A stretch of DNA of 64,000 nt from an uncultured Chloroflexia bacterium (GTDB lineage Bacteria > Chloroflexota > Anaerolineae > JAAYZQ01): assembly GCA_963700285.1 (NCBI GenBank), contig CAVOXA010000010.1:1600001-1664000 (forward strand). The letters run 5' to 3'. How positions within the stretch are numbered: position 1 is the stretch's first letter; each line of letters begins with the position of its first letter. Below are positions 10,047-61,473 of this stretch, piece by piece. A program made the translations under genes and the position numbers. The notes below the pieces were generated by a model, which was given only the letters and a program-made list of their open reading frames with translations, was not told where the DNA came from and ran no database searches.

Positions 10047-10093
10047 GGCCTGGATATAGTAGTTCCATGCAAGCCATTCACTACATGTAGTAG
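10047..10093. promoter_or_regulatory. Tandem NrdR-box-like sites
   Basis: tcaCtAcATgTaGtag at 10078-10093 fits acaCwAyATrTwGtg; weaker ggcCtggATaTaGtag at 10047-10062; starts are 31 bp apart. Confidence 0.5.
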
Positions 10094-10129
10094 AGGTTGC
10101 CTTGGGGTTGATACAGACGTTCGGATCAT

Positions 10130-10285
10130 CGTGGAGCAGGTCGGGGTCATCGCATGAGAGAAAGCTGTTGTCCAGAGGTCCGAAGGCGATGCCACGCTGC
10201 TGCAACTGCCGCTTGGCATATTCATTACCGTTCAGGCACATCTTGACGCCGTAGGGAGCCATAGGTACACACTTCAGTGAAAGTG
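10130..10285 (-). mobile_element. Remnant of a transposase-like gene
   Basis: Fragment APYGVKMCLNGNEYAKRQLQQRGIAFGPLDNSFLSCDDP resembles a widespread, poorly characterised IS-like protein family (recalled, not searched). Confidence 0.55.
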
Positions 10286-10454
10286 ACCAACCCGTGGCCC
10301 TACCGCTCCCGCCACATATTGTCACAGACTTTGGGATTTTCTTGAGCGAAGGCTTCAGCCAATAACTCCCCCGACCAGCGTGCGTAGGCAATGCCCTCTC
10401 CGGTTAGCTGGAGTGATCTGCTCTCTCAACCCTATGCGGCCTCGGCGCAGCGCG

Positions 10455-10692
10455 GGCGATGAGTTTTTCGATCTCCAGCGGTTCGGCTTTGGCCGGATCG
10501 CGCAACAGAGAGATGGCTTCCTGCGAACACTGGGAGACGCATACCCCACAGCCGGCGCACAGGTCCTCATCCACCTGGGCGACATGGCCCGAGGAGGCCA
10601 GCATGGGCGTGCCGTGCTGGTGGGCCTGCATCGCCCCATAGCAACAGGAGCAACAGTTGCAGATGGCATAAAACCGGCCCAGCATGGCATCC
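10455..10692 (-). pseudogene. Displaced 3' end of the 4Fe-4S gene, copy A (internal deletion)
   Basis: KDAMLGRFYAICNCCSCC...DEDLCAGCGVCVSQC...EPLEIEKLIA; the segment between the two CxGCGxC motifs is missing. Confidence 0.85.
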
Positions 10693-10783
10693 TTGTAGTA
10701 GTGGACACAACCGACAAGCGTCGTTTGCTTTGACGACACGGTTGGTGGTACCGCCGCCTACACGGAGACGAGAAAGGTCATAG
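10693..10783. repeat. Conserved ~91-bp junction element X, copy A
   Basis: ttgtagtagtggacacaa...tttgacgacacggttggtgg...acggagacgagaaaggtcatag; also at 12574 and 13694. Confidence 0.9.
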
Positions 10784-10856
10784 CTAACCAGAACTCTGGT
10801 ACTCTTGGTACCACGGTATTCATAGGTCAAGGCAGGGGGGCTAGCCGCGCACGCCC

Positions 10857-11258
10857 CTAACGGGACTTGTACTCCCAGTAGGAGCTGTAGAATTCGTCGT
10901 GAAGCATGGTCTCCTCATCATCGGCCGCCGACGGCTTGTCCGCAAAGCCAACACCTGACCAGAATTCCAAGTCGCCTAGCTCAGGATCGGAAACACCATC
11001 CATCAACGAAAAAAGCCGAAAGAGCGGGGCACTGGCGGTATCTGCGACAACCTTTCTCAAAGCAGAGCGAGCCGCAGGTGACAGTTCCAGGTTCTTGAGA
11101 GCGACTCTCTCTTCTGTAGTGAGAGTTTCGCCTGGAGGATACGTCACGTCAGTGCCGTGTTGCGAAACGCCAAACCAGTTCAATGCTACCGTGGTTGCCT
11201 CAGCGATTTCCTTGTGCATCTCAAAGAACAGCGCTTGTTGTATTTCCTCTCTCGTCAT
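10857..11258 (-). CDS. Hypothetical cargo protein (133 aa)
   Basis: Acidic ORF ending LHDEFYSSYWEY; no family confidently recognised. Confidence 0.65.
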   Translation of the reverse strand: MTREEIQQALFFEMHKEIAEATTVALNWFGVSQHGTDVTYPPGETLTTEERVALKNLELSPAARSALRKVVADTASAPLFRLFSLMDGVSDPELGDLEFWSGVGFADKPSAADDEETMLHDEFYSSYWEYKSR

Positions 11259-11492
11259 CTCGCCTGCCTTTCAGGCATCGATTTTCTCACATCGCGGGCT
11301 AGCGGTTGACGCATCAGCCGCCGCTGGGTGACACCACACACCCAACTTGACCCAATGTACTTCCAAAATTCGAACTGGCAGCAACAAGGCTTTCGATCAG
11401 GCGGAAGGAACTTGGCATCACGCCAAGGAAAAGAGCGTCCTGAACGCTACGCACTTTCGCTATTTGTCAAGGCGTGCCCACGTTGACCGTGA

Positions 11493-11879
11493 CTACCACA
11501 TCACCGTAACTGGATACTGCTCGAATAACGGATCGTTGCTGAGCAGGATTGCGTTCTCGGCATTCGCCTGGGCAATCAATAAGCGGTCAAACGGGTCTTT
11601 GTGGGGCGTAGGAAGGGCCTCCAGCGCCAAGACATGCTCCAGGTCAACCGGCAGGACCTCAAGGTCGTTCGTCTTACATTGACTTTCAAACACTTCTCGC
11701 AAAGGCGACTTGAGTTTCAGCTTGCCCAATTGGGATTTGATCTGCATCTCCCAAACGCTCGCCACGCTGAGCAAAAGCGTATTCGACCGATCCTGGCACA
11801 GCGCAAGTGCGTTCGACGACAACTTGCCCGGCTCGCTGTCCCACCAGATGAAGGTGTGCGTATCAAGACGCAGTCTCAT
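11493..11879 (-). CDS. vapC: PIN-domain toxin (VapC family)
   Basis: LDTHTFIW, SVASVWEMQIK, HKDPFDRLLIAQA, LLSND. Confidence 0.92.
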   Translation of the reverse strand: MRLRLDTHTFIWWDSEPGKLSSNALALCQDRSNTLLLSVASVWEMQIKSQLGKLKLKSPLREVFESQCKTNDLEVLPVDLEHVLALEALPTPHKDPFDRLLIAQANAENAILLSNDPLFEQYPVTVMW

Positions 11880-12111
11880 CCGTCCCCGTCCAGAATTCAT
11901 CCGGCAGCGGCTCGTCGAAATCCTCGCTCGTCCAAATTGCCCCGCTGTGAAGTCCCGCGATGCGTGGCGTCATCGGCGAAGCAATGGGTACCAGGCGCGC
12001 GAGGGGGACATTGTCTTGGGTCAGGATGATCTCTGCCCCCTCGAATGTCTTGGACAACAACTCTTCCAGATTTATCTTTGCCTCTTGCACATCAATTGTC
12101 TTTGCACCCAT
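11863..12111 (-). CDS. Phd/YefM-like antitoxin
   Basis: EAKINLEELL ... EIILT ... PLARLVP ... DFDEPLPDEFW; overlaps the toxin start. Confidence 0.88.
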   Translation of the reverse strand: MGAKTIDVQEAKINLEELLSKTFEGAEIILTQDNVPLARLVPIASPMTPRIAGLHSGAIWTSEDFDEPLPDEFWTGTDETAS

Positions 12112-12167
12112 CTGCGCCTCTCATAATTCGTACCTTCTCCCCAGCTGCTGACAATGGCGATGGTGAC

Positions 12168-12196
12168 ATTATGCACCTGAAATCCTTTCCTGTCAA
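12168..12196 (-). promoter_or_regulatory. Promoter of the Phd-VapC operon
   Basis: TTGACA-17 bp-CATAAT on the minus strand. Confidence 0.65.
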
Positions 12197-12387
12197 GCGA
12201 TGGCAGTAGCCTCTGGTAGATTGAGTTGATCCCGGGCAAGTCCGGCACACTGTCGATCAAGCAACGTCGAACAATAAGCCACATGACGGTTAGCATAACC
12301 GGCATATATGGTCCTATCTGCGATAAACGACGCCGACTGCGAATGTTCCATGGCGGTGCTTCTTGCGAACGCCATTGGCTCTCAGTT

Positions 12388-12573
12388 CTATCCAGTTACC
12401 GCTGCCTCTGCGATGAGCTTCTGAATCTCCAGCGGCTCGCCCTTGGCCGGATCTCGTAGCAGTGAGATGGCTTCTTGCGGACAGTGCGCAACGCACACCC
12501 CGCAGCCCATGCAGGCAACCGCATCGATGCGGGCGAATCCGTCGTCTACCGAAATCGCCGCAAACTGGCAAAT
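12388..12573 (-). pseudogene. Displaced 3' end of the 4Fe-4S gene, copy B (short)
   Basis: CQFAAISVDDG...CMGCGVCVAHCPQEAISLLRDPAKGEPLEIQKLIA; begins directly at element X. Confidence 0.85.
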
Positions 12574-12670
12574 TTGTAGTAGGGGGCACAATCAACAAGC
12601 GTCGTTCGTTTTGACGGCACGGTTGGTGGTGCCTGCCGACGGCTGCCAGGAGGCAAGAAACGCCACCGCT
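12574..12670. repeat. Conserved junction element X, copy B
   Basis: 50 of the first 57 nt identical to copy A by hand alignment; distal part more diverged. Confidence 0.85.
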
Positions 12671-12732
12671 AAATGATTTCCACAACCTGACGGCAGCGGG
12701 CGACCGAGAGATGCTTCATCACCTCGCGCATT

Positions 12733-12763
12733 TTGACAGAACGTGTATATTGTTGTAATATAC
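12733..12763 (+). promoter_or_regulatory. brnTA promoter with palindromic operator; probably leaderless
   Basis: TTGACA-17 bp-TAATAT; gtatatt-N5-aatatac palindrome; ATG 9 nt after the -10 with no SD. Confidence 0.6.
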
Positions 12764-12770
12764 GAGTACC

Positions 12771-13094
12771 ATGAAAAGAGCCATCGCCGACTGCAAAGGC
12801 TTCCAATGGGATGAAGGAAACGAGGACAAGAACTGGTACCTTCATCAAGTCACCGATGGTGGATGTGAACAGGTCTTTTTCAATCTGCCCCTCATCGTTG
12901 CTCCAGATACAAGACATTCACAAACAGAACAACGGTACTACGCGCTGGGGCGCACGGATGCAGATCGCTGGCTATTCGTCGCGTTTGTGGTCAGGAATGA
13001 TTTGATACGGGTGATCTCTGCCCGTGATATGAATCAGAGGGAAATGAGAAGATATGCCGACAGAATTCAAAGAGATCCCAGATTTCAAAGATGA
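12771..13094 (+). CDS. brnT: BrnT family toxin
   Basis: FQWDEGNEDKN, HSQTEQRYYALG, IRVISAR. Confidence 0.9.
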   Translation: MKRAIADCKGFQWDEGNEDKNWYLHQVTDGGCEQVFFNLPLIVAPDTRHSQTEQRYYALGRTDADRWLFVAFVVRNDLIRVISARDMNQREMRRYADRIQRDPRFQR

Positions 13095-13350
13095 AGAGGA
13101 AGAGCGTGCGTTTTGGGCGACGCACGACTCGTCAGAGTATATTGATTGGGATAGCGCCGAGTCCGCGATCCTGCCACAGTTGAAACCATCAACCAAGACT
13201 ATCTCCCTACGGCTACCCGAGGCAATGCTGGACGAGCTGCGAGTCATCGCCAACAAACGCGATGTGCCATATCAGTCCCTGATCAAGGTCTTTCTAAAGG
13301 AGCGCATTGATCAGGAACTGGAGCAACACGCCGGGGTCAAAGTCAGGTAA
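13054..13350 (+). CDS. brnA: BrnA/CopG-like antitoxin
   Basis: IPDFKDEEEERAFWATHD, TISLRLP, DVPYQSLIK. Confidence 0.9.
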   Translation: MPTEFKEIPDFKDEEEERAFWATHDSSEYIDWDSAESAILPQLKPSTKTISLRLPEAMLDELRVIANKRDVPYQSLIKVFLKERIDQELEQHAGVKVR

Positions 13351-13693
13351 GCCCCGTCGCCGCTGCCTCGGCGATGAGCTTCTGAATCTCTAGCGGCTCC
13401 CCCTTGGCCGGGTCGCGTAGCAGGGAGATGGCTTCCTGCGGACAGTGGGCGACGCACACGCCACAGCCCATGCAGGCGGTGGCATCAATGTGGGCGAATC
13501 CGTCGTCTACCGAAATCGCCGCAAACTGGCACGAGTCGGCGCAGGTGCCGCAGCGGCGCACAGCTCCTCATCCACCACCGCCACGTACCCCGACGACGCC
13601 AGCATGGGGGTGCCGTTGTTCCAGGCGTTCATCGCTCCGCAGCAGCACGAACAGCAGTTGCAGATGGCATAGAACCGATTGAGCATCGCATCT
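13343..13693 (-). pseudogene. Displaced 3' end of the 4Fe-4S gene, copy C (one frameshift)
   Basis: KDAMLNRFYAICNCCSCCCGAM...; single missing base near 13555; then CGTCADSCQF...CMGCGVC...EPLEIQKLIA. Confidence 0.88.
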
Positions 13694-13784
13694 TTGTAGT
13701 AGTGGACACAATGGAACATGTCCGTTCGTTTTGACGGCACGGTTGGTGCTCCCTCCACCTGTACGGAGACGAGAAACATCATAG
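13694..13784. repeat. Conserved junction element X, copy C
   Basis: Same 91-nt length as copy A; 72/91 identical by hand alignment; first 18 nt identical. Confidence 0.9.
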
Positions 13785-14048
13785 TTGGGAGCCCCATCCA
13801 GGATAGACCACACAACGCGTACAGAACCAGTGGTCTGGACGCTTCTGTTTGCTCAGAATTGTCTTGGGTCGATAGGTCACGAACTCGGTATGCCTCGTCA
13901 TGGGCACATGCTACCGGGAGGTAGGAAAACGGTCAAGTATAGTGACGAGTCCCAGCGCGGTGAGCTGTCCCCCAAAGTCCCCACGAATCCCGGCAAATAT
14001 GGCACAGTATACGGGCACAATCGTCAGGGATAGAGGAGGAGAACAAAT

Positions 14049-14252
14049 ATGTACAGAACGGAACTACCTGGCTTGGTGCTCACGCCGGCCTATAGTCCAG
14101 AAGACTCGAGCTTGTCCGCATGGCTAACCGAAGTGCTCCTGGCCTTCCGGGGAGACCTGGCGACGGTGGAACTCTGTCAGACCGAGAAAAGGATCGTGCA
14201 ACACCTGCCCAAGAACCCGCCGCGGTATCTGGAAGCCGTGACAAGGGCTTGA
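14049..14252 (+). CDS. Small hypothetical protein
   Basis: 67-aa ORF with a strong GAGGAGG SD. Confidence 0.45.
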   Translation: MYRTELPGLVLTPAYSPEDSSLSAWLTEVLLAFRGDLATVELCQTEKRIVQHLPKNPPRYLEAVTRA

Positions 14253-14492
14253 TTTCCGGGCTGCTTGCGGGTATGGTGGTGATATGGACAACGCCCTGTG
14301 ATGATGTGCGCACCATCCAGGGCAACGACCAGACCCACACGGACGGTCCGCTACGTAGTGGGGATTCCAAGTCCATATACTACCAGCAATAATTCCAGGG
14401 CAACTTTGCCGTCCGGGATGGGATGAGACCGGAGATTCAGGCTGCCGTGGGGGTTGAGACCTCACAAGCCAACACCAAGGAGGAATTCAGCC

Positions 14493-15001
14493 GTGAGCAA
14501 AGTCAAAGAGATCTTGCGAACTTAAGGGCCTGAGGTCTGGTCGATGGCACCGGATGCTACGGGGTACGATGCGCTTAAACTGATGGCCGATTGGAATGTA
14601 GGTGCCGTGCTCGTGATGGACGCCAACCACCTGGTGGGCATCCTATCAGAGAGGGACTATGCCAGGAAGGTCATCCTCCACGGCAAGTCGTCCAAGGACA
14701 CATCGGTCTGGGAGATCATGACCCAAAGGGTGGTCTATGTGCGCCCCGAACAGACCGCCGAAGAGTGTATGGCACTGATAACCGACAAGCGGGTTCGGCA
14801 TCTGCCCGTCCTGGAAGACGACCAGGTGATCGGCGTCATTTCGATCGGGGATGTGGCAAGAGCATCATTTCTGAACAGGGGTTCATCATCGAGCAGCTCG
14901 AACGCTATGTCTCGGGGACCGTATATCGGAGACGGCAATCTGGCAGATCAGATGGGAGGCTAGAAGAAGACGCCCTGCGATCTAGCACCATCCACGGGTA
15001 G
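14493..15001 (+). pseudogene. CBS-domain protein, disrupted
   Basis: GILSERDYARKV, RVRHLPV, SIGDV; GTG start after AGGAGG, in-frame TAA at codon 11 and a frameshift near 14855. Confidence 0.8.
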
Positions 15002-15043
15002 ACGGGCGACCAAACCGCTGCGAAGGGGAGAGGAGCCGCCGCA

Positions 15044-15358
15044 ATGACCGAAACCCCCAATGACGACAAGTCTGGCTTCGCAACCGAGAAGCCAGAACAC
15101 TGTCATGCCTGCTCCCAGCTTATTCGTCCTGGCCAGATATACTTTCTGACAATTGGAAACGCCGTGCTCTGCGGGGACTGCATTAAGGCTACTGACGCAA
15201 TCCGCGTGGTCGATGAACTGGTAGTGGTGATTGAGGGTGGCAAGCTGTTGGTTCAGCGCGGGAGCGCTGCGGGCGAGGTTTCGCCAGGTGAGGTGCGGCA
15301 CCTGGTTGATGCACTGGTAGAGGGGACGGAGAAGCTGGTGGGTCGGCAGACACATTAG
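15044..15358 (+). CDS. Small hypothetical protein with CxxC...CxxC (possible Zn-binding)
   Basis: HCHAC...LCGDC; GAGGAG SD. Confidence 0.5.
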   Translation: MTETPNDDKSGFATEKPEHCHACSQLIRPGQIYFLTIGNAVLCGDCIKATDAIRVVDELVVVIEGGKLLVQRGSAAGEVSPGEVRHLVDALVEGTEKLVGRQTH

Positions 15359-16088
15359 CCCAAGGAGTGAGTGGGTATGCTCGCCCAAAATGCGCATCCG
15401 TTCGAAAACCCATCGCTCAGGGATGGTAACCTTTTTGGATTGCTCGGGCTGAGCGGCTGTTCCCTCAGCGGATGGCATTTTTCGGCCAGGACACGGCGAG
15501 GCTCCAGGCCACTCGTGGACCGGACGCTGCCGTCTGGACTTTCTAGCCGATCTATAGCTATGGAATCGATGCCTTGTGGAGCGCAACCAGCCCGGCTTCT
15601 CGCTCGCTGAAAAGCATCTTGAGAGTGCCGTACAGTACGTCCGATGGGGGCGCGCCCTGGGGGAAGCGGTTGAGCCTCGTGATCGGCTCTTGATAGCCCG
15701 ATCTGCTTGTGCGGTGTGCCATTTCTGCAATCCCTGGTAGGCGCCCGCCTCGGCGACGACGCTTTATCCGACGCTTTGGCTTCGAGCGCCTGGCGCCGTG
15801 ACGTTTCGAGTGGTGTCTGCCAGCCGGGTGGGCTCCTATCTAGCGGATTTTTTCATCACCTTTGCTGGTAGCCAGAAGTATGGTTCCAACGATTGGGGTC
15901 TCAACCTCCTCGCTTCGGAGTTGGCTCAATAGCGATTGTGGTGTACAATCAGCCTGCACCTGCGGCAAGAAGTTGCAGCGGTCCCCAATTGCCGGTCCAC
16001 GGCCCGGACAGCATCAAGACGGTTTTCCAGGCCGGCGCTTCGTTCCGTTTTGTGTTGGCGACAGGGTTGTCCAAGAAAAGGTGGCGCA

Positions 16089-18518
16089 ATGTCCAAGAGA
16101 GTCGTTTCCCTCGTAACCATCTGGCTGTTGCTGTCGACGCTGGTCCAGGCGACGGGTCGCCCCGCCCTCGAGAGACGGCCCATCCAAGATGCTCCAGCCG
16201 CCGGCAAGCTGAATGTTGAACTGTTGGGCCATTGGTCGGACCACAATGTCCTCGATCTGGAGGTGCGTGGCGATCTAGCCTTTATGTCCTACTATGATGG
16301 CAGTTCGGACGCGTTCGGTCACGTCTGGCTGGTGGACGTCTCCGATCCCACTGATCCGCACCGGCGCGCCGGTCCGGACCTGATCACGGCCGGCTTGTAC
16401 GCGGTATTCAAGGCGGTCAGTGCCGACGACCAGTTTGTCTATGTGGCCGAAGAATCGCTGCAAGGGAGCGGGTCGTCGGTGGAGGCGTATACCGAAAGCA
16501 ACCTGGAGGAGTTCTGCAGCTATTACACGGATTCCTCGATGGTTGAGATGTGGACCGGCGCAACGCCCAGCGGGGAGTATTTGTTTGTGGCCCAACGCAA
16601 TGGCCTCTTGGTTGACGGGTCCGAACAAGGGGAAGGGCTTAACTGCGGCGCGTTGGGCACCTACGAGGCGCCCAGCGAGTTGACCGCCGCCGCCCACACG
16701 GCGGACTTTGCCTACCTGGGCACATCGGACGGCCGCCTACTGGTGGTGGACGTTGCTTTTGCCACCAAGCCCTCAGACCCAAAGGAAAAGAGCCGCAGCG
16801 TGCTGCTGCCCGGCGGCATCGATGCCATGGCCGCCGCACCCGGCGTCGTTTACCTGGCCCAGGGGACGACGATCAAGATTGTGGACGTGTCCAATCCCGC
16901 TTCTCCGGTGGTAGCCAAGACGTTTACCAGTCCTGTGGCAGTGGCCCAACTGGGGGTAGCCAGCGGTTACCTGTACGCCGCCTCGGCGGGAGGGCTCTAT
17001 GTCTTTGACGTGGGGGACAACAACGCGCCCAACCTGGCCGGCTACTACCTCGACCAAACCGACGGCGGCTTTGGCGGGGCGCTCTATTTGGCCAATGGCC
17101 TGGTCTACACGGGCGGTCCGGGAGGGCTGAACATCCTGCGGTTTGCGCCCGGCGACCAGCCAAAGGGAGCCCTTCTGATACAGCCTGGGGAACCAGGCAG
17201 TGTCTCGCTGAATGGAGTGGAACTGTCTTATCCCTGCGAACTCCAGATGCCAGCCCTGGGCGCCAAGGGGCCGGTGGTTGATGCAGCTTGCGCAGAGGGT
17301 AAGCAAGGAGACAAAGTCGAGATATTGAAAAAGAGAACCATGATCTACATGTATGTCGGGTGCATCGTTACGATGTTTGAGCAGTTCAGGAGGGCGCTTG
17401 GGGTCCGCCGTCTGGAGGATGGTGACCGGTGGCTCGTCAGCGTCGCGTTCTTGGGGGCTCATGTGGTATGTTCGGAAAAACTTCCGTCAAGAGCGCAAGA
17501 CACAGCCTCGCCCTACTTGGTGCTCGATCACGAGTCCGGGGCTCTGCAGTACAGCTTTCTGCTGGAGGAACAATCCGTAGAGGTCAGAACCCAGGCTGTC
17601 GCGATACGCTCCGACGGCGCCAACACGGTGAGCGTCGACCACGACCCGCAGGCCAACCGGACGACGGTGAGTTGCTACAGCGGCTCTCTGACTCTCACCC
17701 CTAAGAACAGCTCCCTGCCCCCCTTCACCCTGGGGGCCAGCCAGGAGGTGGAGGTCACGGCGGAAAGCGTCAGCCCCATCGAGCCCATCGACTACCCCTA
17801 CTCCAGCTTCCTGCCGCTGACCGCGAGAGCGTACGCTAGTGCGCCGCCCAGCGGCTGGCGCACCCTGCTGCGGGAGGATTTTGAGGGCGTATTCCCCGGC
17901 GCCTGGTCGGTGGCCGATGGCTCGGCCGGCTCCGGCGAGCATCATTGGGCCAGCCGCACCTGCCGGCCCCAGGCTGGGGGGCGCAGCGGATGGGCGGTGG
18001 GCGGCGGCTTTGGCGGCGCGGCCCTGCCCTGCGGCAGCGACTACCCGCCCGAGGTCGAAGGTTGGATGATGGCCGGCCCCTTTGATCTGTCGGACGCCAC
18101 CGCAGCCGAGGTGACCTTCCAGCGCTGGCTCAATTCCGAATCGGAGGACCGCCTGCTCTGGCTAGCCTCCGCCGACGGCGTGAATTTCCAGGGGTGGCAG
18201 GATTCAGGGGCCGTGGGCGATTGGCAGGAGACGGTGTTTGACCTGACGAATGTGCCAGGCCTGGGCGATCTGACGGGGGATCCGGACGTTTGGATCGCCT
18301 TTGTGTATTCCAGCGATGCAGCAGGCAGCAAGCCCGAGGGCGCCTATGTGGACGATATCCTCATGCGAAAATACCTCCCGGCGACGGGTGGGGCTCAGAG
18401 CGCCCCGCAGCCGGGCGCTCGACAGGCGGCGCCTCAGGAGACGGAAGAGCTGGCGCCAGCATCATGGGTGCTGCCCGCTGCAGGAGTTGAGCGACGAGGC
18501 TCGGCGAGCCCCTACTGA
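16089..18518 (+). CDS. Secreted multidomain protein (LVIVD-like repeats, internal FLPL motif, C-terminal beta-sandwich)
   Basis: Signal peptide MSKRVVSLVTIWLLL; repeats VWLVDVSDP/IKIVDVSNP/LYVFDV; YSSFLPL; EDFEG...YVDDI domain. Confidence 0.75.
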   Translation: MSKRVVSLVTIWLLLSTLVQATGRPALERRPIQDAPAAGKLNVELLGHWSDHNVLDLEVRGDLAFMSYYDGSSDAFGHVWLVDVSDPTDPHRRAGPDLITAGLYAVFKAVSADDQFVYVAEESLQGSGSSVEAYTESNLEEFCSYYTDSSMVEMWTGATPSGEYLFVAQRNGLLVDGSEQGEGLNCGALGTYEAPSELTAAAHTADFAYLGTSDGRLLVVDVAFATKPSDPKEKSRSVLLPGGIDAMAAAPGVVYLAQGTTIKIVDVSNPASPVVAKTFTSPVAVAQLGVASGYLYAASAGGLYVFDVGDNNAPNLAGYYLDQTDGGFGGALYLANGLVYTGGPGGLNILRFAPGDQPKGALLIQPGEPGSVSLNGVELSYPCELQMPALGAKGPVVDAACAEGKQGDKVEILKKRTMIYMYVGCIVTMFEQFRRALGVRRLEDGDRWLVSVAFLGAHVVCSEKLPSRAQDTASPYLVLDHESGALQYSFLLEEQSVEVRTQAVAIRSDGANTVSVDHDPQANRTTVSCYSGSLTLTPKNSSLPPFTLGASQEVEVTAESVSPIEPIDYPYSSFLPLTARAYASAPPSGWRTLLREDFEGVFPGAWSVADGSAGSGEHHWASRTCRPQAGGRSGWAVGGGFGGAALPCGSDYPPEVEGWMMAGPFDLSDATAAEVTFQRWLNSESEDRLLWLASADGVNFQGWQDSGAVGDWQETVFDLTNVPGLGDLTGDPDVWIAFVYSSDAAGSKPEGAYVDDILMRKYLPATGGAQSAPQPGARQAAPQETEELAPASWVLPAAGVERRGSASPY

Positions 18519-18622
18519 ACCGTATGGGGTCAGAAAGGGATACCTGGCCCACTGTCGGCAACCAAGCTCTACACCCCACATCAGCCTGGGACTGGTGCCG
18601 ATCTGGTCGCTGCTGCTTTTAC

Positions 18623-18658
18623 CTGTCCTGGCCGAATATTCTCATCCGGCCAGGACAG
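18623..18658. terminator. Hairpin between convergent genes
   Basis: ctgtcctggccg / cggccaggacag perfect 12-bp stem. Confidence 0.45.
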
Positions 18659-18800
18659 CCAATGGTCGCGAGGCTTGACTCTTCCGGCTACCAGGCGATT
18701 GATCTGCCGCGCAAACTCGCGCTAGCAGGTGGACTTGGGATCCCGGGTCTTGTAGGCATCGCTGGGCAAAAGAACCGGGCTCACACTGGCCAACTATCTA

Positions 18801-19743
18801 CTATCTTTCTGTGACTTGAGCGGCCTGGGCCATGAGTTTTTGGATCTCCAGCGGTTCGCCCCGAGATGGGTCGCGCACCAAGGTGATACCTTCCTGAGCA
18901 CACTTGGAGACGCACACGCCACAGCCCATACAGGCAGCAGGACTCGATCACTGCAGTTCCATTGTCCACGCTAATCGCTTTGAATTGGCAATAGTCGGCG
19001 CAGATACCGCAGCCTGCGCACAGATCCTCATCCACCTGGGCGACATAGCCCGAGGAGGCCAGCATCGGCGTGCCGTTCCGGTGGGCGTTCATCGCCCCGC
19101 AGCAGCACGAGCAGCAGTTGCAGATGGCGTAGAATCTGCCCAGCATAGCATCTTTGAAAAAGGCGTGGTGCACGTGCCCCCGCTCGTGTTCGGCGCGCAG
19201 GATCTCCACGGCCTCGTCTGGACTGATCCAGCGCGAGCGCTGGGGGTGGTGTTCGCCGACAAAGCTGGCAAAAGGCTCGCCAATGACCATGCACACGTCC
19301 AGCGGCTCGCAATGGTTGGGTCGTACGCTGCGGCAGGGACAGTCCAGGACCACGATGTGGTCCGGATCCTGCAGCACAATGTCGCGGGCCAGGGCGTAGG
19401 GAATGGCCTGCTCCAGGTCGGTCAGGACGACCTCCTCCTCGACCGTAACCAGTTGGGTCGCCGCCTCCAGGGACACCACCTTGCCGTGATAGGTATCGGC
19501 AAAGGTGATGCGATCCGGGTCGTCCTCCGCAGGCGGCGGCAGCAAGCGGCTCACCAGGCGAACCGGCGGCCCAAAGATGCGGGCCAGCGGATGGGTGCCG
19601 GCCCCAATGCCAATATAGAGATAGGTCCAGCGGCCATACACGTAGGCGTGCAGAAAGTTCAGGAGGGAGTAGCCGGGCGTATTGCGGGCTTCTTTGGCAA
19701 AGGCGCGCGTGGCCGGCCGGCCTGATAGGAATTTGGGCTTCAT
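18801..19743 (-). CDS. 4Fe-4S dicluster binding protein (CPCR and CNCCxCCC type); apparent +1 frameshift near 18940
   Basis: DCPCR, CMVIG, AICNCCSCCCG, CAGCGICADYC; after the shift CMGCGVCVSKC...EPLEIQKLMA...stop at 18801. Confidence 0.88.
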
Positions 19744-49346: not shown

Positions 49347-49414
49347 ATGGGGTGTTTTTTTGCCAAAAGGTAGGGTTTCTCCCCATTGACAGGGAGCATT
49401 TCTTGGGGTATACT
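49347..49414 (+). promoter_or_regulatory. Promoter with conserved upstream operator block, copy 1
   Basis: atggggtgtttt...ccaaaaggtagggttt..cccca then TTGACA-17 bp-TATACT. Confidence 0.7.
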
Positions 49415-49658
49415 GGATATGCTACGATGGCTGGCTCAGAGCCAGCCCGTGATCAGCGTTCTGGGTTCGAACACCGCCCAAGATTTGGTTTGAACCCCTA
49501 GAAGCTTGCTTGCGGCCTGCAGATATCAGTTGCATGCTCCCCAATTGCGACCGAGTGCCTTGGTGATCGGTAGAAAAGAGGAGGTGAAAGATCGCCTACA
49601 AGACCGACCGTTCTAATGGCTCAATATCTCAAATACCATGTAATGACGGAGGCGAACA

Positions 49659-51490
49659 ATGAATCGGACGTTGAACCTATTTGGGCGGCGTGGCCCACGT
49701 CTGCCTGCCACGGTGATCTTGGTATCCGTTCTGCTGGTAGCCCTTGTACCAGTAGCCACCTTTGCACAATCTAGCATGTACCAGATCTACGTCACCGATG
49801 TAGGGGCTGCCCAGTTTACGGTGACATGGGTCACCGACACAGCCACGGATGGCCACGTGGATTGGGGCACGACCACAGCCCTGGGCAATACCGCGTCGGA
49901 TCCGGACACCAGTACCACCATGCACCGGGTGGTGGTCAGCGGATTGTCGGCCACTACCAATTACTACTTCCAGGTGCGTTCCGGGGCGACGACGGACAAC
50001 AATGGCGGCGACTATTACCAGATCACCACGGGTGCCAGTTTGAGTCCACCCTTGCCGGGCAAGATCGTGTGGGGCTATGTGAAGCAGTCGGACGGAACCA
50101 CGCCGGTGGCTGGTGCCCTGGTCTACCTGCAATTGCAGGACAACGATGCCAGCGGTGACGCTGGCACCTCGCAGTGGGTGACAACCGAGACCGATGGGAG
50201 TGGGGTGTGGGCCTACGACCTGAACAACGTGCGCCGGGCTGACGGCAGCGCCTACTTTGGCTTCTCCGACGGAGGCGACAATCTGCGTCTCGTGAGCCAG
50301 GGAGCCATCCAGGGCGTCGAGGGGGAGGATGGCGCGGAACGGATTGAGACCGTACCCATAACATACGATGCCCAGTTTGTGGATGCAACGTTGAGCGGTA
50401 CGCTGAACGGCTCGCCCATCGTCGGCCACGACCACTGGGGCGAGACCTGGACCGGGTCGGGGACAGGCTTGACTCGCCATGTCCTCTGATGGCACAGCCC
50501 TCCGGGGAGAGACGAGCGACACCAGTGGCATTGGCATCGTCGGCGTCGCCGACACTGCCACCGGCCCGAGTATCGGCGTTTGGGGCGTCACCAAGCTCCG
50601 TCGTGGGTCAAGGTGTCTTTGGCTGGGCCAGCAACACTGGCGGCACTGCTGGTGGTCCAGTCCCCAGAGGCGTCTATGGCCAGACAGACTCCAACGTTGG
50701 CATCGGCATCTATGGTTATGCCGGGAACCCAAGCGGCTTCACGACCGGCCTCTTTGGCCACGCCGCGTCGGAAGACGGCCGGGGCCTCATCGGCCTGGCG
50801 GACAACAGCCATCCCACCAAGACGACCATCGGCGTTTGGGGCGTCAGCGGCTCGGGAACGGGCCGGGGCCTGTTCGGCTATGCCAATCACCCCACCGGCG
50901 ACAACGCCGGCGTCTATGGCCAGACCGATTCCACGGGCGGTTGGGCGGGCAAGTTTGTCACCAGTACTGGCAACGGCGTCTACATCTCGGTCCCTGCTGG
51001 CAAAGCGGGTCTCACGATTGTGGGAGCTCCCAAGCCGGCTGTCGTGCGCACCGATGACGGCAGCCGGGAACTGTATGCCGAGGAGTCAGCCGAGGTCTGG
51101 TTCGCCGACTATGGTTTCGGCCAGCTGCAGGATGGCGCCGCAGTGATCACCATCGAACCTATCTTTGCCCAGACGGTGAACCTGGAGCAACCGTACCACG
51201 TCTTTGTCCAGGTCTATGGCGATGCAGAGGTCTATGTCAGCGGGCGGACGCCGGAACAGTTCGAGGTACGGTTGCGAGATGGCGACGCCAATGTCGAGTT
51301 CTCCTACCGGCTGGTGGCCAAGCGGTCAGGCTTTGAGGACCTGCGCCTGGATCGCGCCCCGTGGGCCGACAACGACCCGAACCTGTATCCGGAGCAGGGG
51401 ATGAACTGGACGGATAGGCTCGGTACCGAACTGGCTGTGCCGACAGTCACCGTACCGCAGCAGCTAGAGGCAGCGCCAGAGTCACCCTAG
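49659..51490 (+). CDS. Secreted Fn3-like domain protein with Gly-rich GVYG repeat fibre-like C-terminus (two frameshifts near 50480 and 50595)
   Basis: Signal peptide; FTVTWVTD...YYFQVRSG; GVWG/GVYG/GLFG repeats; ESAEVWFADYG...FSYRLVAKR terminal domain. Confidence 0.65.
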
Positions 51491-51939
51491 CCCCGGTATC
51501 TCCTATCCGATACTGTATCAATCCGTGGTGCAGATTGCGGCCTTTTGCGGCAGTCTGTACCACGCTGCAGATTGGTCCGACTGTGGCCTGCCCGCGGAGC
51601 ATAGGACTGGGATGCAGGCTGACGAAGGCTGCCTAAACAGGTACTCCCTTCCAAGTGACCAGAAGATGCCCTCTTCTGGTGTGGTAAAGAAGACAGGGTT
51701 TCACCCATCTTCTTCACCACACCGAGGTACGTGACCGGCCAGGACTCGGCACAGCTACCCAGTTTGATGGCCGAAAAAGTACCGGAACATGCTGGGCCGA
51801 CTGGAAATTCCCCAGCGGTTCCTTGCTTCCTGCCTGATTTCGTACGGCGGCTTTGGTGATCTCCAGACAGGCCCTGGGGCTGGCTGTGGAAGACCTCTGC
51901 GCTGGGTTTGGTACCAGCGGTGTCCTGGAGCAACCAACA

Positions 51940-53178
51940 ATGGCGTGGTTTCGCTTGATCGCTGGACTGTTTATCCTAGGCTGGGCCCTCCTCCCCCTAC
52001 CGGGCTCGGTCCCGAAAGCACGCCTGGGCCGTGCAGCCACGCCCCCAAAACTTGAGCAGTACTGCTCCGACGGTAGCGCGCGGCCTATCTCGACAGCCGA
52101 TCCCCTCATCTCTGACGTCCTGGTGACCAACCGTCGGGATGTTGCTTTCACCGTTACCTGGCGCACCGACGCGGCCAGCACAGGCCGGATCGAGTTTGGG
52201 GAAACCCCGAGCCTGGGTCAGGTGGCCTACGACGACCGGGGCGAGGACGTTGCCTCCAGGGTGCATCATGTGACCCTCACCCGGCTGACACCGGATACGA
52301 CTTACTACTACCGCGTGCATGCTGGCGGTGCGATCTCCCCTGCCGAGGGAGAGCCATACCAAGCCACGACGCTGCCGACGGGCGTACCACCTGTACCCTT
52401 TTTGGCCTATGGTCAGGTGAAAACGTCAGGCGGAGATCCAGCCGAGGGTGCGCTGGTACGAGTCCGGCTGTTGGACGCGGGTGGGGGACAATCAGAGCCG
52501 TTGTCCAAGTTGGTGGATAGTTATGGTTATTGGTCGCTGAACCTCCCCTTGGCAAGCTGCAGCGGCGTGCAACTGCAGCTTGCAGCCTTCGGCGCCGAAG
52601 GGGGTGTTGCCGAGCTGACCCACGCAGCTTGTGACCTCCGGCCGGCGCCGGCCATGGTGCTGGTGGATGGGTACGAGGTCGCGGTGACGGTAGTAGGCCA
52701 AGGCCGGGTGGAGCACAGGCCAGGCAATCCTTACCAAGCTGGCCAGAAGGCGAGGCTGGAGCCGATCGCTGACCCTGGATGGGCCTTTGCCGGGTGGAGC
52801 GGCCCGGATGCCGGAGACCTGGAGGATCAGGGCGATGGCACCTGGTCGCTGACAGTGGATGACGACAAGGCAGTCACGGCCACCTTTGCCGAAGGACTAT
52901 ACGAGGTGACGGTGACGGTAGTGGGCCAAGGCCGGGTGGAGCATCGGCCAGGCAATCCCTACCGAGCCGGCCAGGAAGCAACGTTGGAGCCTATCCCTGA
53001 CCCAGGGTGGGCCTTTGCCGAGTGGAGTGGTCCGGATGCCGGGGAGCTGGAGGACAATGGCGATGGCACCTGGTCCCTGCCAGTGGATGGAGACAAGGCA
53101 GTCACGGCAATTTTTGGGCGGGATGAGTACTCCTTTGACATCTATTTGCCATTGATCGGGCGAGAGGATCAGCGATGA
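51940..53178 (+). CDS. Secreted protein: Fn3-like module, two InlB B-repeat-like units, IYLPL tail
   Basis: Signal-like MAWFRLIAGLFILGW; ISDVLVTNRRD module; PGWAFAGWSG repeats. Confidence 0.72.
   Translation: MAWFRLIAGLFILGWALLPLPGSVPKARLGRAATPPKLEQYCSDGSARPISTADPLISDVLVTNRRDVAFTVTWRTDAASTGRIEFGETPSLGQVAYDDRGEDVASRVHHVTLTRLTPDTTYYYRVHAGGAISPAEGEPYQATTLPTGVPPVPFLAYGQVKTSGGDPAEGALVRVRLLDAGGGQSEPLSKLVDSYGYWSLNLPLASCSGVQLQLAAFGAEGGVAELTHAACDLRPAPAMVLVDGYEVAVTVVGQGRVEHRPGNPYQAGQKARLEPIADPGWAFAGWSGPDAGDLEDQGDGTWSLTVDDDKAVTATFAEGLYEVTVTVVGQGRVEHRPGNPYRAGQEATLEPIPDPGWAFAEWSGPDAGELEDNGDGTWSLPVDGDKAVTAIFGRDEYSFDIYLPLIGREDQR
52672..53120 (+). repeat. Tandem 228-bp coding repeat (2 copies)
   Basis: tacgaggt...caaggccgggtggagca starts at 52672 and 52900. 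Confidence 0.85.
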
Positions 53179-53606
53179 GGTGCAGCAATCCCGAGGTGCA
53201 AGGGGTAGAAGATCTGGTCGGTCCACGCGGACGGACCGCACTGGTGTACCCATCCCGGTCAGCCGTCTACCTGGCCGTCTTGGTACCTTCCAAGACGGCC
53301 GATGACCAGCCAGTTGTGGATGCGCTGGGCCGGGTGTGGCTGGCGAATGAGGGGCATGTACTGAGCGGGGCCAAAGCGGGCAAGGCCTCAGAGCCACTGT
53401 CGACGTTGGTCGACGGCTATGGCTACTGGTCCATGAACCTGCCGGTGGCGGCTTGTGACGACCTAACCCTCAAGCTGCAGGCCATCGGCCGCAGGGGCAG
53501 CGAGGCGGAGCTGATCCAGTCGGCGTGCGAAATTAGGCCGGCGCCGACGGTGATGCTGTCGGAGGAGGGGCCTATCAGCATCTATCTGCCGTTGATCACC
53601 CGTTGA
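53175..53606 (+). pseudogene. Orphan C-terminal piece of the shared module
   Basis: SEPLSTLVDGYGYWSMNLP...EEGPISIYLPLITR with no signal peptide or Fn3 part. Confidence 0.6.
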
Positions 53607-53828
53607 GGCCTCATTGTATGCCAATGGGTGGGTGGGGGAGTGGGCAGAGGAAGGCCATGAGGTTTAAAAGGGTCGGAGGCCCGGAGGCTGGGGTTCAGAC
53701 CGTCTCTGAGGTCGTGGAGAGCTCAGGATGATCGTACCAGATGCCAGAGGATGCCCAACATCGTGCTTATTAGAATTGAGGCCATCCTGTACGTCATGTT
53801 GGAGAATCGACAGGGAGGAGCTTGTGAA

Positions 53829-56800
53829 ATGAAAAAGCCGGGGAATCTCAGGAGATTCGTTATCGCCATGATGGTGATGGCCCTGTGTCTCACAGCTTTT
53901 GTGGCCGTAGGGGTAAGAACCCCCTCAGCAGCAGCGGGCATTCCGGTCCACGGTTCGCCTGGAGCGCCCATCGCGAACAACCCGATTGAGGTTGGCCGCG
54001 ATCCTCATGACCTGGCACTGCGGATTCTCGGCAGCGCCGCAGCAGGGACAAAGAAGTTTTCGTTCGATGGCGAGTACTATCAGGTTCATACGTTTACGCT
54101 AGAGGATGGGACTAGCGTTGATCAGATTGTCATCAATGGCCCGCCGACCCCTCCGGCTGGGATTGAGCGTAGTACCGTGATGCTACCTCAACCAGACCCG
54201 GTGGCGGGCGTCAACGTGTTGTCCAATGTACCTGCTTTCAATTGGTCTTTTGGTTGTTCGGCCACTTCTGCAGCAATGATTGCCGGATACTATGACAGAA
54301 CCTCGTATCCGAACATGTACACGGGACCAACGGACGGTGGGGTCATGCCCCTGGATAATAGGTTATTCCTTCCTGGCCGGATGTAGTCATAAATGGCGAG
54401 ACCAGGCATCAGTGTCCGTTGAGCGCAACTCGGCAAGGTCTCGATGGACGAAGCATTCGAGGCCATGTGAACGACTACTGGGTCAGGTACGGAAGCACCG
54501 ATCCCGATCCGTTCATGGGCAACTGGCCGGAACACTCGTATGGCGATTGCACCGGCGATTATATGAAAACCAATCAATACAACTATGACAATTTTGATGG
54601 TGCCACAACCTTCTGGAACTATACCAGTGGGTCTCCATGGCGTGGCACCTATACGAATGACGGTGGCTATGGCCTAGAGCTTTTCTATGAATCCAGAGGC
54701 TACACTGTTACCGACAGGTATAACCAATATATCAGGGGCCAGGGTAGTGATCCCTCATTGGGCTTCACCTACGATCAGTTCAAAGCAGAGATCGACGCTG
54801 GTCGACCGGTTATGATCCACGTCGTAGGTCACACCATGGTTGGGCTAGGCTATGATGACTCTACCCATCTTATGTATATCCATGATACCTGGGACTATAG
54901 CACCCACACCATGACCTGGGGTGGTTCATACAGCGGAATGGAGCACAAAGGTGTCACTATCGTCCAGTTGGCGGCAGCGCCCAGCCTGCCCGGTCCTTTC
55001 GGCAAGAGCAATCCAAACAACGGGGCACTCGGCCAACCGACAAACCTGACCCTGCAGTGGGGCAACAGCAACGGCGCCGCGAGCTACGAGTACTGTATCG
55101 ATACGTCCTACAACGGAGCTTGCGATGCAAGCTGGATCGACGTGGGCAATACGACGAGCGTCGTATGCCCTCGGAGCGGGTTGAGCATAAGCACCAGCTA
55201 CTACTGGCAGTGTGCGACGCGGCCGAAATTCGTCTGGAACCACCGAGGCTGACGGTGACGCATGGTGGGACTTTACGACCGGGGGCCAGTGCAGCGACCC
55301 CCACGAACCCAACGACACGGCAGGTCAGGCGAGTCCTATCAGCTACGGGCAGACGCTGACCGATCCCGGCATCTGCCCGGCCGGCGACGTGGACTATTAC
55401 ACCTTCTCCGGTGGTGCAGGGGATACCATCGTCGCCGACATCGATGCTTCGACCATCGGCTCCTCCCTCGATTCCTACCTCACCCTCTACGGCCCTGATG
55501 GCGTCAGTGTACTCGATCAGAACGACGACTATGAAGACCTCGATTCGCAGATCACATACAGCTTGCCCGCGGATGGGACATACTACTTGATGGTGCGGGA
55601 ATACAACCACCCAAACGACGGGGGAATAGGTTATTTCTACCATATCTCCCTGCACCGGAACCTACACGCCAACTGGACGTCGAGTGCCCCGAACCCGGAT
55701 GGGCAGATACTGCCTGGTGAGTGGGACAACGCGGCCAGCTACGACATTACGGTTGCTGGCGTTGTGAGCCAACGAGAAGCCGGCGCAGCAAGCAGGGCAT
55801 CACCCGAAATCCTGGCGCACGAGCGGCAACTGGACCTGGGACGGGCGGCGCCAGAGATCCCAGAGCTTGCCGTCACCCTATACGCCATGAACGACGCCGA
55901 CCACCTCTATCTGGCCATCGACAATCCCAACGACACGGGGGCAGATGAGTACGATCAGATGGGCCTGTACTTTGACGACAATCCGTTGCCGTCCGATGGG
56001 CAGTGGACGAACACGAGCTGCGGCAATCCGGATGGAGAAGGCAATTTCTGGGTCATGCCCTATGGAGTCGACTACCGCGAGTGGATCGAGGGTCCGGCCA
56101 CTTGCGAGGTAGTAGAGCCGGCGCCGGGAACCACCGGTGCCGTTGGCCATGTCAGCGGACACGCACAGGCAGAGGTCGCCATCGATCTGCCCGTGTCAGC
56201 GCTACGTGCTGCGCCAGGTGATGTCATCAACATGTATCTGTGGATCTACAATTCGGCCACAGGCCTGATTGATGGGAAGTGGCCTGAGGCCGCGGACTTT
56301 CAGAACCCTTCGACCTACGGGGCATTGACCCTGGCCAACCAGATTGATGCCTACGAACCAGACGATATCTGGGAGCATGCAACCTCGATCGAGGATGGGG
56401 TTCCTCAGACGCACAGCATTGTGCCGGTGGGTGATGAGGACTGGGTTACGTTCTCGCTGGCGGCGGAATCAGCCGTGGCCCTTGAGACATCGGGGCCCAG
56501 CGGGGACACCCGCATGTGGCTCTACGATAGCAATCTCGACCAACTCGAATACAGTGATGACGATGGGGACGGGCTATTCTCGTACATAGACCGGGTCTGC
56601 GGGACAGATGCGCTCGCTCCAGGCACCTACTATGTGCAAATCGACGAGTACAGTGATGACGGAGAGATCCCCACCTACGACATTGCTGTTGACGTTGTGC
56701 AGGTGTGCGACGGCGATGGTCACGCCTTGGCGCCTGGCTGGAACTTGTTAGCGCTGCGCCACGCGCCCCTGCCGGCTGCCGAGCCCGCGCTGGACGAGAT

Positions 56801-57917
56801 AGGAACTCAGGGCGGAGACGCTGACCTGGTGGCCCGCTGGCTCAGTGACAGCGATGTCTGGGAGAGCCATGCCAAGACACGACCATACAACAACTATTTG
56901 CTAGAGCTGGGTCAGGGTTACTTTGTCCGGGCCGCCGTAGCCAGTACCTGGGTACGCACGGGTCCCCCTCCTGCCGATCCAGCCCCGATGGATCTCGAAC
57001 CCATGTGGGCGCTAATCGGAATCCCCAAGCTGCCGGGTCCAATGACGGCCGCCGATCTGCTCGCCGAGGCCACAGCTCAGGGGGGCGCGTGCACAGAGAT
57101 CGACCGCTGGGATCAGCCTACCCAGACGTATGAATCTTTCGACAGCGGGATGCCCGGCACAGGCTTTGACCTGACGGAGGACGAAGGCTACTTTGTCAAG
57201 TGCGCCAACGCTATCACCTACACGCCTGGCGGAAGCGGCGCGCTGCAGCGGCCACCGTCGACCCAGGAGATCCCGGTGGGGCTGCCCGTACTGGAACCGG
57301 TCGCGGACCCGGCCATTTCTGACGTGCTGGTCACCAACCGCCGCGACGTGGCCCTCAGCATCACTTGGCGCACCGACCAGCCGAGCACCGGCTGGGTCGA
57401 GTATGGGGAAAAGACGGCCCTGGGCCAGACGGCCCACGACGACCTGGGCGAGGGGACCGTCTCACAGGTACACCACGTCACCCTCACCCGCCTGACACCC
57501 GAGACCACCTACTACTTCCGCGTGCATTCTGGAGAGACCGCAGACGATAACGACGGGGCGCTCTACAAGGTCACCACCAAGGAGACCGGCATGCCGCCCG
57601 TGCCGTACCTGGCCTATGGACAGGTGGAGACCGCTGACGGCCAGCCGGCGGCGGGGGCGCTGGTGCGGGTCTGGCTGGTGGATAAGGATGACAAGTCGTC
57701 TGAGCCGCTGTCGACGCTGGTCGACGGTTATGGCTATTGGTCGATGAGTCTACCCGTGGACCGGTGCAAGGACCTGGATGTGAGGTTGCAGGCCATTGGC
57801 CGGCAGGGCAGCGAGGCGGAGCTGACCCAGTCCGCGTGCGAGGTCAAGCCAGCGCCAACGGTCAAGCTGTCGGAAGAAGGGCCACTCAAGATCTACCTGC
57901 CTCTGATATTGCGTTAG
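53829..57917 (+). CDS. Large secreted papain-like cysteine peptidase (C10/C39-like) with PPC-like domains and shared C-terminal modules; frameshifts near 54365 and 55215
   Basis: Signal peptide; WSFGCSATS (Cys), GHTMVGLGY (His), IHDTW; HEPND/DVDYY and YEPDD/DEDW PPC-like domains; IYLPLILR. Confidence 0.75.
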
Positions 57918-58150
57918 GGGGTGTGCGCTGTAAGATAGACCCTGATCTGTTTCGCAAGCGCCAGGGCTGCTGGCGGGCATGTGGTGTGGTGAGCTGGCGC
58001 CTGCCAGCGGCTTTCTGAATTCGCGTACTGCAGATCCTCAGGCGTTGATGGCGTGGCGTCAGAGATCGCGAATCCTCGGGCTGAGCCTCTGAGCGGAGTC
58101 CAGGGTTGGGGTTCGACAAATCGCTCACTGCCGGGACCCTGTTCGGACGA

Positions 58151-58179
58151 TTGCATTGTTCGGCAAACGGTGATATAGT
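58151..58179 (+). promoter_or_regulatory. sigma70-type promoter
   Basis: TTGCAT-17 bp-TATAGT with TG extension. Confidence 0.5.
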
Positions 58180-58259
58180 ATCCGCGCTTCCGAAAAAGCG
58201 CGATCGCAGCCGCATGGCATAGCATTGAGGTTTGAAGGAGGTACGACACGAGAAGAGCA

Positions 58260-61085: not shown

Positions 61086-61216
61086 GGGGCGGACCGGGTA
61101 GACGCCGAACCCTTCCGTGAGAACCAGGGCCGCAGGTGGGTACCGGGCAGATTAGGCCGGCGTACACCTGCGGCCTGCTGGATCCGCGCCCGGTTGTCCC
61201 CCTGTTTTTCCATCAA

Positions 61217-61284
61217 ATGGGGTGTTTTCCCGCCAAAAGGTAGGGTTTTACCCCATAGACAGGACGCCCCGTCTATGGTATCAT
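61217..61284 (+). promoter_or_regulatory. Promoter with conserved upstream operator block, copy 2
   Basis: atggggtgtttt...ccaaaaggtagggttt..cccca then TAGACA-17 bp-TATCAT. Confidence 0.7.
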
Positions 61285-61473
61285 AGATCCCAAGGTAGAT
61301 GGCCCGGGAGAACGCACCCTCATTGTCGAATCCCCCCCGGACCGCTGCCTGCTTGGGTGTGGAACAGAGCAGGCTGGACCGTAGCAGATCGCATCGTTCT
61401 CGACCGCCAGTCGCCGCGATTGTTGTACCGGTGAGAGGAGAGCCGCACAACCGATCAACTTCCAAGGAGGAAA

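Follow-up and report, generated by a model that had tools for sequence, protein, structure and literature searches.

Tandem accretion of genomic islands and cis-mobilisable elements have been described for streptococci (PMC5704250). For Dehalococcoides, PMC3146451 describes islands at ssrA that involve the serine recombinase DsiB and a 20-bp tmRNA repeat; these islands span many kb, and 16 of them carry an integration module. A related question is raised in PMC13617665, namely that of toxin-antitoxin modules accumulating in chromosomes without nearby mobile genes. Here we describe a stack of small units within a protein-coding gene of an Anaerolineae bacterium, in which each copy of the gene's 3' end is preceded by a short conserved element that we call X. 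The window, i.e. the whole stretch of DNA that was analysed, comprises 64,000 nucleotides and corresponds to positions 1600001-1664000 of contig C10 of its own genome, G000; the stack is read on the minus strand.

The stack in the 4Fe-4S gene

BLAST analysis of the window showed that the last ~340 bp of a gene for a 4Fe-4S dicluster protein recur three times downstream of it as diverged copies C, B and A (Table 1). This is the architecture, a full gene followed by X plus 3'-end copies C, B and A, that a sequence-only reading of the same DNA had proposed. That reading had also placed the start of copies A and C at one position of the gene; the homology of both indeed begins at base 19156, as does that of copy B, which then jumps. 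The copies are 72-90% identical in BLAST pieces (E 1e-10 to 1e-61) and 66-86% identical overall. X (~80-90 bp) lies directly before each tail copy and is 76-84% identical among copies A, B and C; the full gene itself has no X in front of it. Measured from junction to junction, units 1, 2 and 3 span 5460, 1120 and 1881 bp, close to the about 5.5, 1.1 and 1.9 kb estimated earlier, and Pfam confirmed the brnTA and phd-vapC cargo recognised in that reading as brnT with a CopG-type antitoxin and phd with PIN, respectively. Unit 1 (5.5 kb) is pieced together from an sbcD remnant, the LVIVD-repeat and CBS genes and a radical SAM 5' stub.

Table 1. Coordinates of the features in the window and of further stacks in the same genome (G000).
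Feature	Position	Strand	Basis or remark
4Fe-4S dicluster protein gene, full, target	18801..19743	-	Fer4 domain (Pfam); one-base frameshift near 18943
Junction inside the 4Fe-4S gene	19150..19160	-	C of CAA at 19156 is the homology start for every 3'-end copy
Working 3' end of the 4Fe-4S gene, likely cassette-derived	18801..19156	-	identity drop against congener; best match is an X-preceded copy
sbcD remnant past the stop codon of the full gene	18660..18800	-	common to the X-preceded copy in L079
Unit 1 cargo: LVIVD-repeat gene, probably secreted protein	15936..18518	+	Pfam
Unit 1 cargo: CBS-domain gene	14544..14963	+	Pfam
Unit 1: 5' stub of Rv2578c-like radical SAM gene fused to X	13784..13901	-	
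X, copy C	13696..13783	-	conserved element end
3'-end copy C	13343..13696	-	full length; one-base deletion near 13553
Unit 2 cargo: brnT toxin and CopG-type antitoxin	12771..13350	+	Pfam
X, copy B	12576..12665	-	conserved element end
3'-end copy B	12388..12576	-	BLAST; about 140 bp deleted inside
Unit 3 cargo: phd antitoxin and PIN (vapC) toxin	11493..12111	-	Pfam
Unit 3 cargo: 133-aa hypothetical gene	10857..11258	-	no Pfam or NCBIfam match
X, copy A	10695..10783	-	conserved element end
3'-end copy A	10404..10695	-	internal deletion of about 85 bp between the two cysteine motifs
Remnant of 534-aa hypothetical protein family, beyond the stack	10074..10277	-	no link to X found
Further stacks, toxin-antitoxin cargo (metG, comM, yyaL-like, DUF1722)	C10:636000-656000, C10:1848000-1866000, C6:6000-32000, C14:142000-156000, C14:696000-708000		

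The frameshift in the full gene is probably a sequencing error, since other genes of the G000 assembly are in pieces (RNA-polymerase gene region) and the congener's copy of the 4Fe-4S gene also spans three frames. The Rv2578c-like 5' stub of unit 1 was also found left of X in loci L069, L083, L095 and L104; across the loci, several units have the 5' stub of this gene on the left of X and others have its 3' part on the right, and elsewhere in G000 a frameshifted copy is directly followed by X (L001:9480-10724; G000:C1). The distal part of the window (49347-64000) contains repeats of 200-300 bp (52081/57288/60456; 61613/63654) and a 47-bp repeat (49347 and 61217), all unrelated to the stack.

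A protein search of 61 genomes revealed tail-only matches outside G000 in G012 (3), G018 (3), G005 (2) and G017 (1), and X was detected at the DNA level in 6 of 23 genomes of the family. A pattern of the X core matched 11 stretches in a species-genome collection, including one chance match and two stretches on contigs titled Thermodesulfobacteriota, and 37 stretches (34 loci) in metagenomes; at most of these loci the same 4Fe-4S tail follows at the same base. Locus L062 was dropped as a chance pattern match within a gene. The X units with 4Fe-4S tail on Thermodesulfobacteriota-titled contigs (L064, L069) may reflect cross-phylum transfer or misbinning. Four other genomes and about 30 metagenome contigs share the junction of X with the 4Fe-4S tail, their cargo varying from unit to unit, and in the congener G001 the 35 kb following the 4Fe-4S gene contain neither X nor a tail copy. 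Both the variable units with different cargo and the empty site that the sequence-only reading had anticipated in relatives are thus present. As the same junction occurs with different cargo in independent genomes and contigs, and a genome of the same genus has the gene without the stack, the stack is not a misassembly; it is real and belongs to a family in Anaerolineae bacteria.

Comparison of the full gene with that of G001 showed 91% identity (532/587) before the junction and 78% (255/329) after it (p=1e-7). In comparisons with distant relatives, the 3' part is mostly no less conserved than the 5' part, and in a few it falls behind by 6-8 points. The X-preceded copy of L079 is the best match (80% over 501 bp) for the gene's tail plus about 160 bp of following sequence, including the sbcD remnant; the best match of copy C with its flank is L100. 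The identity drop and the L079 match both support the earlier suggestion that the resident 3' end was replaced, and the working 3' end probably stems from a cassette. Within the gene, the breakpoint in identity is best placed about 70 bp beyond the junction; this position is equally compatible with entry by homologous recombination and counts against a purely site-specific crossover. The order of insertions suggested earlier is not supported by this comparison: copy A (71% identical to the G001 3' end) is not nearest to it, copy C reaching 77% and the full gene 76%.

Element X, its targets and its cargo

A sequence-only model of X built from 35 copies detected the element in 15 of 151 genomes of the class, with up to 14 copies per genome. 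A profile of its pseudo-peptide, used with a loose cut-off, detected X in 29 of 401 genomes, and in 3/401 when applied across the phylum. The right end of X consists of a TTGTG-like motif, eight variable bases and then T-A/T-C/T, and lies at a fixed distance from the junction. On the target side a G was found twelve bases before the junction in six of the seven host targets read, the 4Fe-4S gene being without it; the comM target lacks the junction T, and only one target base is well conserved. The target rule is not strict, and some targets do not follow it. Within a lineage, X copies share their own consensus and diverge leftward at variable points; apart from the gene tail, no conserved left end or left arm of the X units was found. 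Of 97 high-scoring X copies, 25 contain a sigma70-like -35/-10 pair directed outward across the junction; none of the 33 copies at the 4Fe-4S gene does. At contig ends of genome G160 (L148, L150, L225), X copies at different targets share an identical, hairpin-containing left flank of ~50 bp that ends in unassembled repeat and is possibly an insertion sequence targeting X. One X in front of a helicase gene has CRISPR repeats (L136:93-276; weak CRISPR-DR10 match) immediately upstream.

In G000, X-like ends also head stacks of tail copies at metG, comM, a yyaL-like gene and two DUF1722 loci. Within the available flanks, an upstream copy of the right flank was found at 22 of 111 distinct X sites, 14 at the 4Fe-4S gene and 8 at others, in units of 0.4-3.4 kb. 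A cysteine desulfurase gene harbours a single unit, which carries a PIN-like pair (L269), and a class V aminotransferase gene a single cargo-free one (L265); SIS-domain (L220) and sulfatase-like (L222) genes have duplicated tails. At least nine genes carry a duplicated tail. At radical SAM, metallophosphoesterase and ASCH genes X is fused to a mid-gene fragment. The names comM, yyaL-like, sulfatase-like and sbcD are ones we presume from sequence recognition; for comM, Pfam Mg_chelatase_C matched as well.

X also occurs alone. In L195 it forms a clean insertion of ~88 bp in G078 compared with an empty site in G032, with 3 bp common to both ends; this is the one case with such a shared sequence, others replacing or rearranging host DNA. 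A 2.8-kb X-ended insertion with an imprecise left end replaces about 117 bp in L261. In L155 and L201 the homology breaks at the right end of X, where homology to the congener resumes in L155, and in L193 the two flanks map to different congener contigs, the right-hand homology resuming about 40 bp past X. At the recA site the congener carries a decayed X, too. The metallophosphoesterase site was found empty in contigs of three of four public runs, which also contained several other flanks on either side of X. Since X copies precede recA, cinA and a helicase gene, we considered a promoter of a DNA-damage regulon; this was rejected because most neighbours are unrelated and X copies mark insertions and breakpoints.

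Pfam families of the toxin-antitoxin type were matched by 48 of 105 upstream ORFs, a set mostly picked by eye out of 221, with housekeeping-looking ORFs omitted and some matches under the curated cut-off. No recombinase Pfam match was found among the same 105 ORFs. A cargo ORF of a metG unit (L085:5910-6812) weakly matched Pfam Toxin_10, an insecticidal crystal toxin domain, at a score below the cut-off.

The attC sites of integron cassettes are bounded by RYYYAAC and GTTRRRY. RYYYAAC was found in one of 97 X copies and GTTRRRY at none of 97 junctions. Folding of X gave a median hairpin z of -0.5 on both strands, with z<-2 in 8 and 6 of 97 copies on the two strands, respectively. No consensus structure or consensus base pairs were detected among 35 copies and no Rfam match over X in 12 loci. 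A viral origin of X was rejected, as a search of viral contigs returned no matches for two X patterns and no confirmed relatives of the integrase at L123 described below.

The mobilising enzyme and competing explanations

As stated in the sequence-only reading, the window contains no integrase, and none of the seven tyrosine recombinase matches in G000 lies near X. G000 has no large serine recombinase and no IS91 transposase. Nine recombinase and transposase queries against the flanks of the 111 X sites matched at seven sites. Three of these have fragments of integron integrases and one has an Xer-like fragment; the other matches are an XerD-like gene downstream of a weak X, the remnant in the window and one intact tyrosine recombinase. 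As only 48 of the 111 sites have at least 3 kb of upstream sequence, larger integrase-bearing elements may be missed. The intact enzyme (L123:570-2123; G298:C317) has 323 aa; its gene lies on the element side, beginning about 65 bp from X and pointing away from the junction, and a toxin-antitoxin-like pair comes after it. This locus, where the X target is intergenic, is the best candidate for an autonomous element. Among 16 homologs of the L123 integrase in 401 genomes, X was found at one and was absent from 15, and no relative was found in G000 or its family. Two expectations of the sequence-only reading are not supported: a dedicated recombinase beside X, given one intact integrase at 111 sites and X at one of the 16 homologs, and a site special to the 4Fe-4S gene, given X at nine or more genes and between genes.

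Three other candidate mobilisers were rejected. No X was found in 30 serine recombinase loci from 14 of 20 genomes. The IS91 transposase (PF04986) is present in 6 of 21 X-bearing genomes, never beside X, and nine IS91 loci contained no X. The 534-aa family with a remnant at 10074-10277, which we take to be transposase-like, falls into large unnamed Atlas clusters with no common Pfam; it is present in 5 of 40 genomes and has its own ends without X. In locus L294 (1510-3130; G422:C550) the stop codon of a large serine recombinase overlaps the start of a comM 3' fragment; its junction lies about 40 bp upstream of the comM junction of X, and no X is present there.

The fixed right end, loose targets, duplication and replacement of gene tails, stacking and toxin-antitoxin enrichment are observed. 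The reading that we favour, and to which we give an even chance of being correct, is that X is the recombination arm of non-autonomous, relaxed-target cassettes that accrete in tandem and are moved by an enzyme encoded elsewhere, likely of the tyrosine type. A trans-acting recombinase would join X to a loosely defined target, often with a G twelve bases before the T-A/T-C/T junction. Joining an X downstream of a gene to a target within it would produce a unit of gene tail, intervening DNA and X, either as a circle or as a tandem duplication, the two junctions being indistinguishable in contigs. Such a unit would carry its own target and 300-600 bp of homology, and could re-enter the same gene by site-specific or homologous recombination, restoring the reading frame with a foreign tail and pushing older tails outward. 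Toxin-antitoxin pairs would guard units against loss by recombination between the repeated tails, which we propose as the cause of their enrichment, and displaced tails would decay, as copies A and B may have done. Against this reading stand the observations that no enzyme tracks with X (L123 homologs, serine recombinase loci, IS91 loci), that the conserved left end of an ordinary two-arm att system is absent, that the target rule is loose, that the breakpoint lies about 70 bp past the junction and that no circle was observed.

The units could instead be decayed remains of larger, cis-mobilisable integrative elements, each with its own integrase, a replacement tail and a gene-internal attB, which were stacked and shrank to a right arm and a toxin-antitoxin pair. 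Such a route is described for streptococcal islands (PMC5704250) and for the tandem ssrA islands of Dehalococcoides (PMC3146451). The patchwork of remnants in the 5.5-kb unit is consistent with it, as are two X copies with an integrase neighbour, intact in one case and a C-terminal fragment in the other, each pointing away from the junction. These two integrases belong to different families, however, a single end sequence is common to at least nine target genes, X also occurs as lone insertions and in a cargo-free unit, and no intact parent island was present at the 4Fe-4S gene in any locus examined; we consider decay unlikely, albeit a serious candidate.

A fixed right end combined with a variable and imprecise left end would also be expected if X were the end at which a one-ended reaction, either single-stranded (rolling-circle, HUH-type) or copy-out, is initiated. 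Such a reaction would capture the DNA to the left of X up to a look-alike site, and the circle would then re-enter by RecA homology through the gene tail. The position of the gene breakpoint inside the repeat agrees with this, and the four opposite-strand bases that precede the cut are frequently CTTG or CTCG, the tetranucleotides given for IS91 targets and terIS in PMC13181058. On the other hand, X has no subterminal palindrome (median folding z -0.5), only one target base is well conserved, and the IS91 transposase, confined to 6 of 21 X-bearing genomes, does not lie beside X in any of them; we regard this route as improbable.

The opposite strand of X reads as a conserved peptide, in which all six Leu codons are used, followed by a stop. 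The pN/pS of this frame is 0.44-0.66 in four sets that were not filtered on the peptide, although some of their copies were first found via the peptide profile; it is the lowest of the six frames in each set, and 1 of 60 column shuffles was as low. A stronger value of 0.15 is inflated, as it came from a peptide-filtered set. The peptide had seven matches among 1.84 billion protein representatives, of which the six that were read look spurious, and searches in Pfam, PHROGs and NCBIfam gave nothing consistent. We treat the weak coding signal as a possible lead only. It would agree with X being a C-terminal piece of ~27 codons split off from a recombinase gene of the element itself, a gene that would be whole only in the circle, with lone copies as scars; 'suicidal' integrases of this split kind are described for archaea in PMC8371274, and X as found here resembles them in part only. 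The conserved peptide with its stop and the pN/pS of 0.44-0.66 speak for such a gene, but no real protein with the peptide emerged from these searches and no N-terminal half was found, so that a split recombinase appears very improbable.

An origin of the stack by collapse of strain variants during assembly can be practically dismissed despite the frameshifts in the assembly: short-read genomes and metagenome contigs independently show this architecture and junction, and the tail copies are only 66-86% identical overall.

Comparison with known systems

A literature search, with subscription journals and supplements outside its coverage, returned no description of X, and the X family in Anaerolineae is apparently undescribed. 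X cassettes offer a concrete route to the build-up of toxin-antitoxin modules in chromosomes without mobile genes nearby. They point to a recombinase that joins one defined donor end of ~60 bp to numerous short targets; such an enzyme would be interesting as a tool for DNA insertion. They also show that, in a sediment lineage that has received little study, protein C-termini and promoters are replaced horizontally. As a bolder and quite tentative proposal, which we think rather less than evenly probable, X may represent a new class of one-ended, promoter-bearing mobile end that is served by a relaxed enzyme acting in trans. Such an end would rewire promoters between genes and turn gene tails into self-targeting landing pads, giving toxin-antitoxin arrays without attC, IntI or a parent island and serial swaps of C-termini, e.g. 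that of MetG.

X shares features with several described systems. Like MITEs and putative mobile promoters (cf. PMC3575422, PMC6382973), X is short and multicopy (up to 14 per genome), and many copies carry an outward promoter before host genes; as a short, multicopy, non-coding element it also shows empty-site polymorphism. In contrast to these elements, no conserved left end or terminal inverted repeat was seen in X, and it also builds stacks of gene tails. With the one-ended transposition of IS91 presented in PMC13181058 it has in common one fixed end, variable capture of adjacent DNA and the lack of a clear target duplication, whereas the palindromes, tetranucleotide rule and transposase link described there are missing in X. 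The variable arrays of small gene units resemble the CALIN of PMC4889954, i.e. arrays of toxin-antitoxin-rich units of 1-2 kb with no integrase nearby; they differ from that description in that X has no attC ends or hairpin, the units carry a host gene tail and the arrays lie in essential or conserved genes.

The Dehalococcoides ssrA islands, as reported in PMC3146451, come from the same phylum and are likewise arranged in tandem, with copies of the gene 3' end and a conserved element-side motif just before each repeat. X differs from the islands of that report by targeting protein genes, by unit sizes of about 0.4-5.5 kb and by having no integration module. In the CIMEs of PMC5704250, too, units are stacked at a gene-internal site, the target end is restored and units have no integrase; X units are correspondingly flanked by repeats of the target-gene end, with the gene restored. 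Compared with the CIMEs of that account, X provides one end for many genes, uses gene-tail repeats of 300-600 bp and also occurs alone; no conserved left arm and no parent was found. X cassettes work like island accretion and are possibly a new kind, and even if the units were only decayed islands, they would still represent an unusually broad, multi-target form of tandem accretion.
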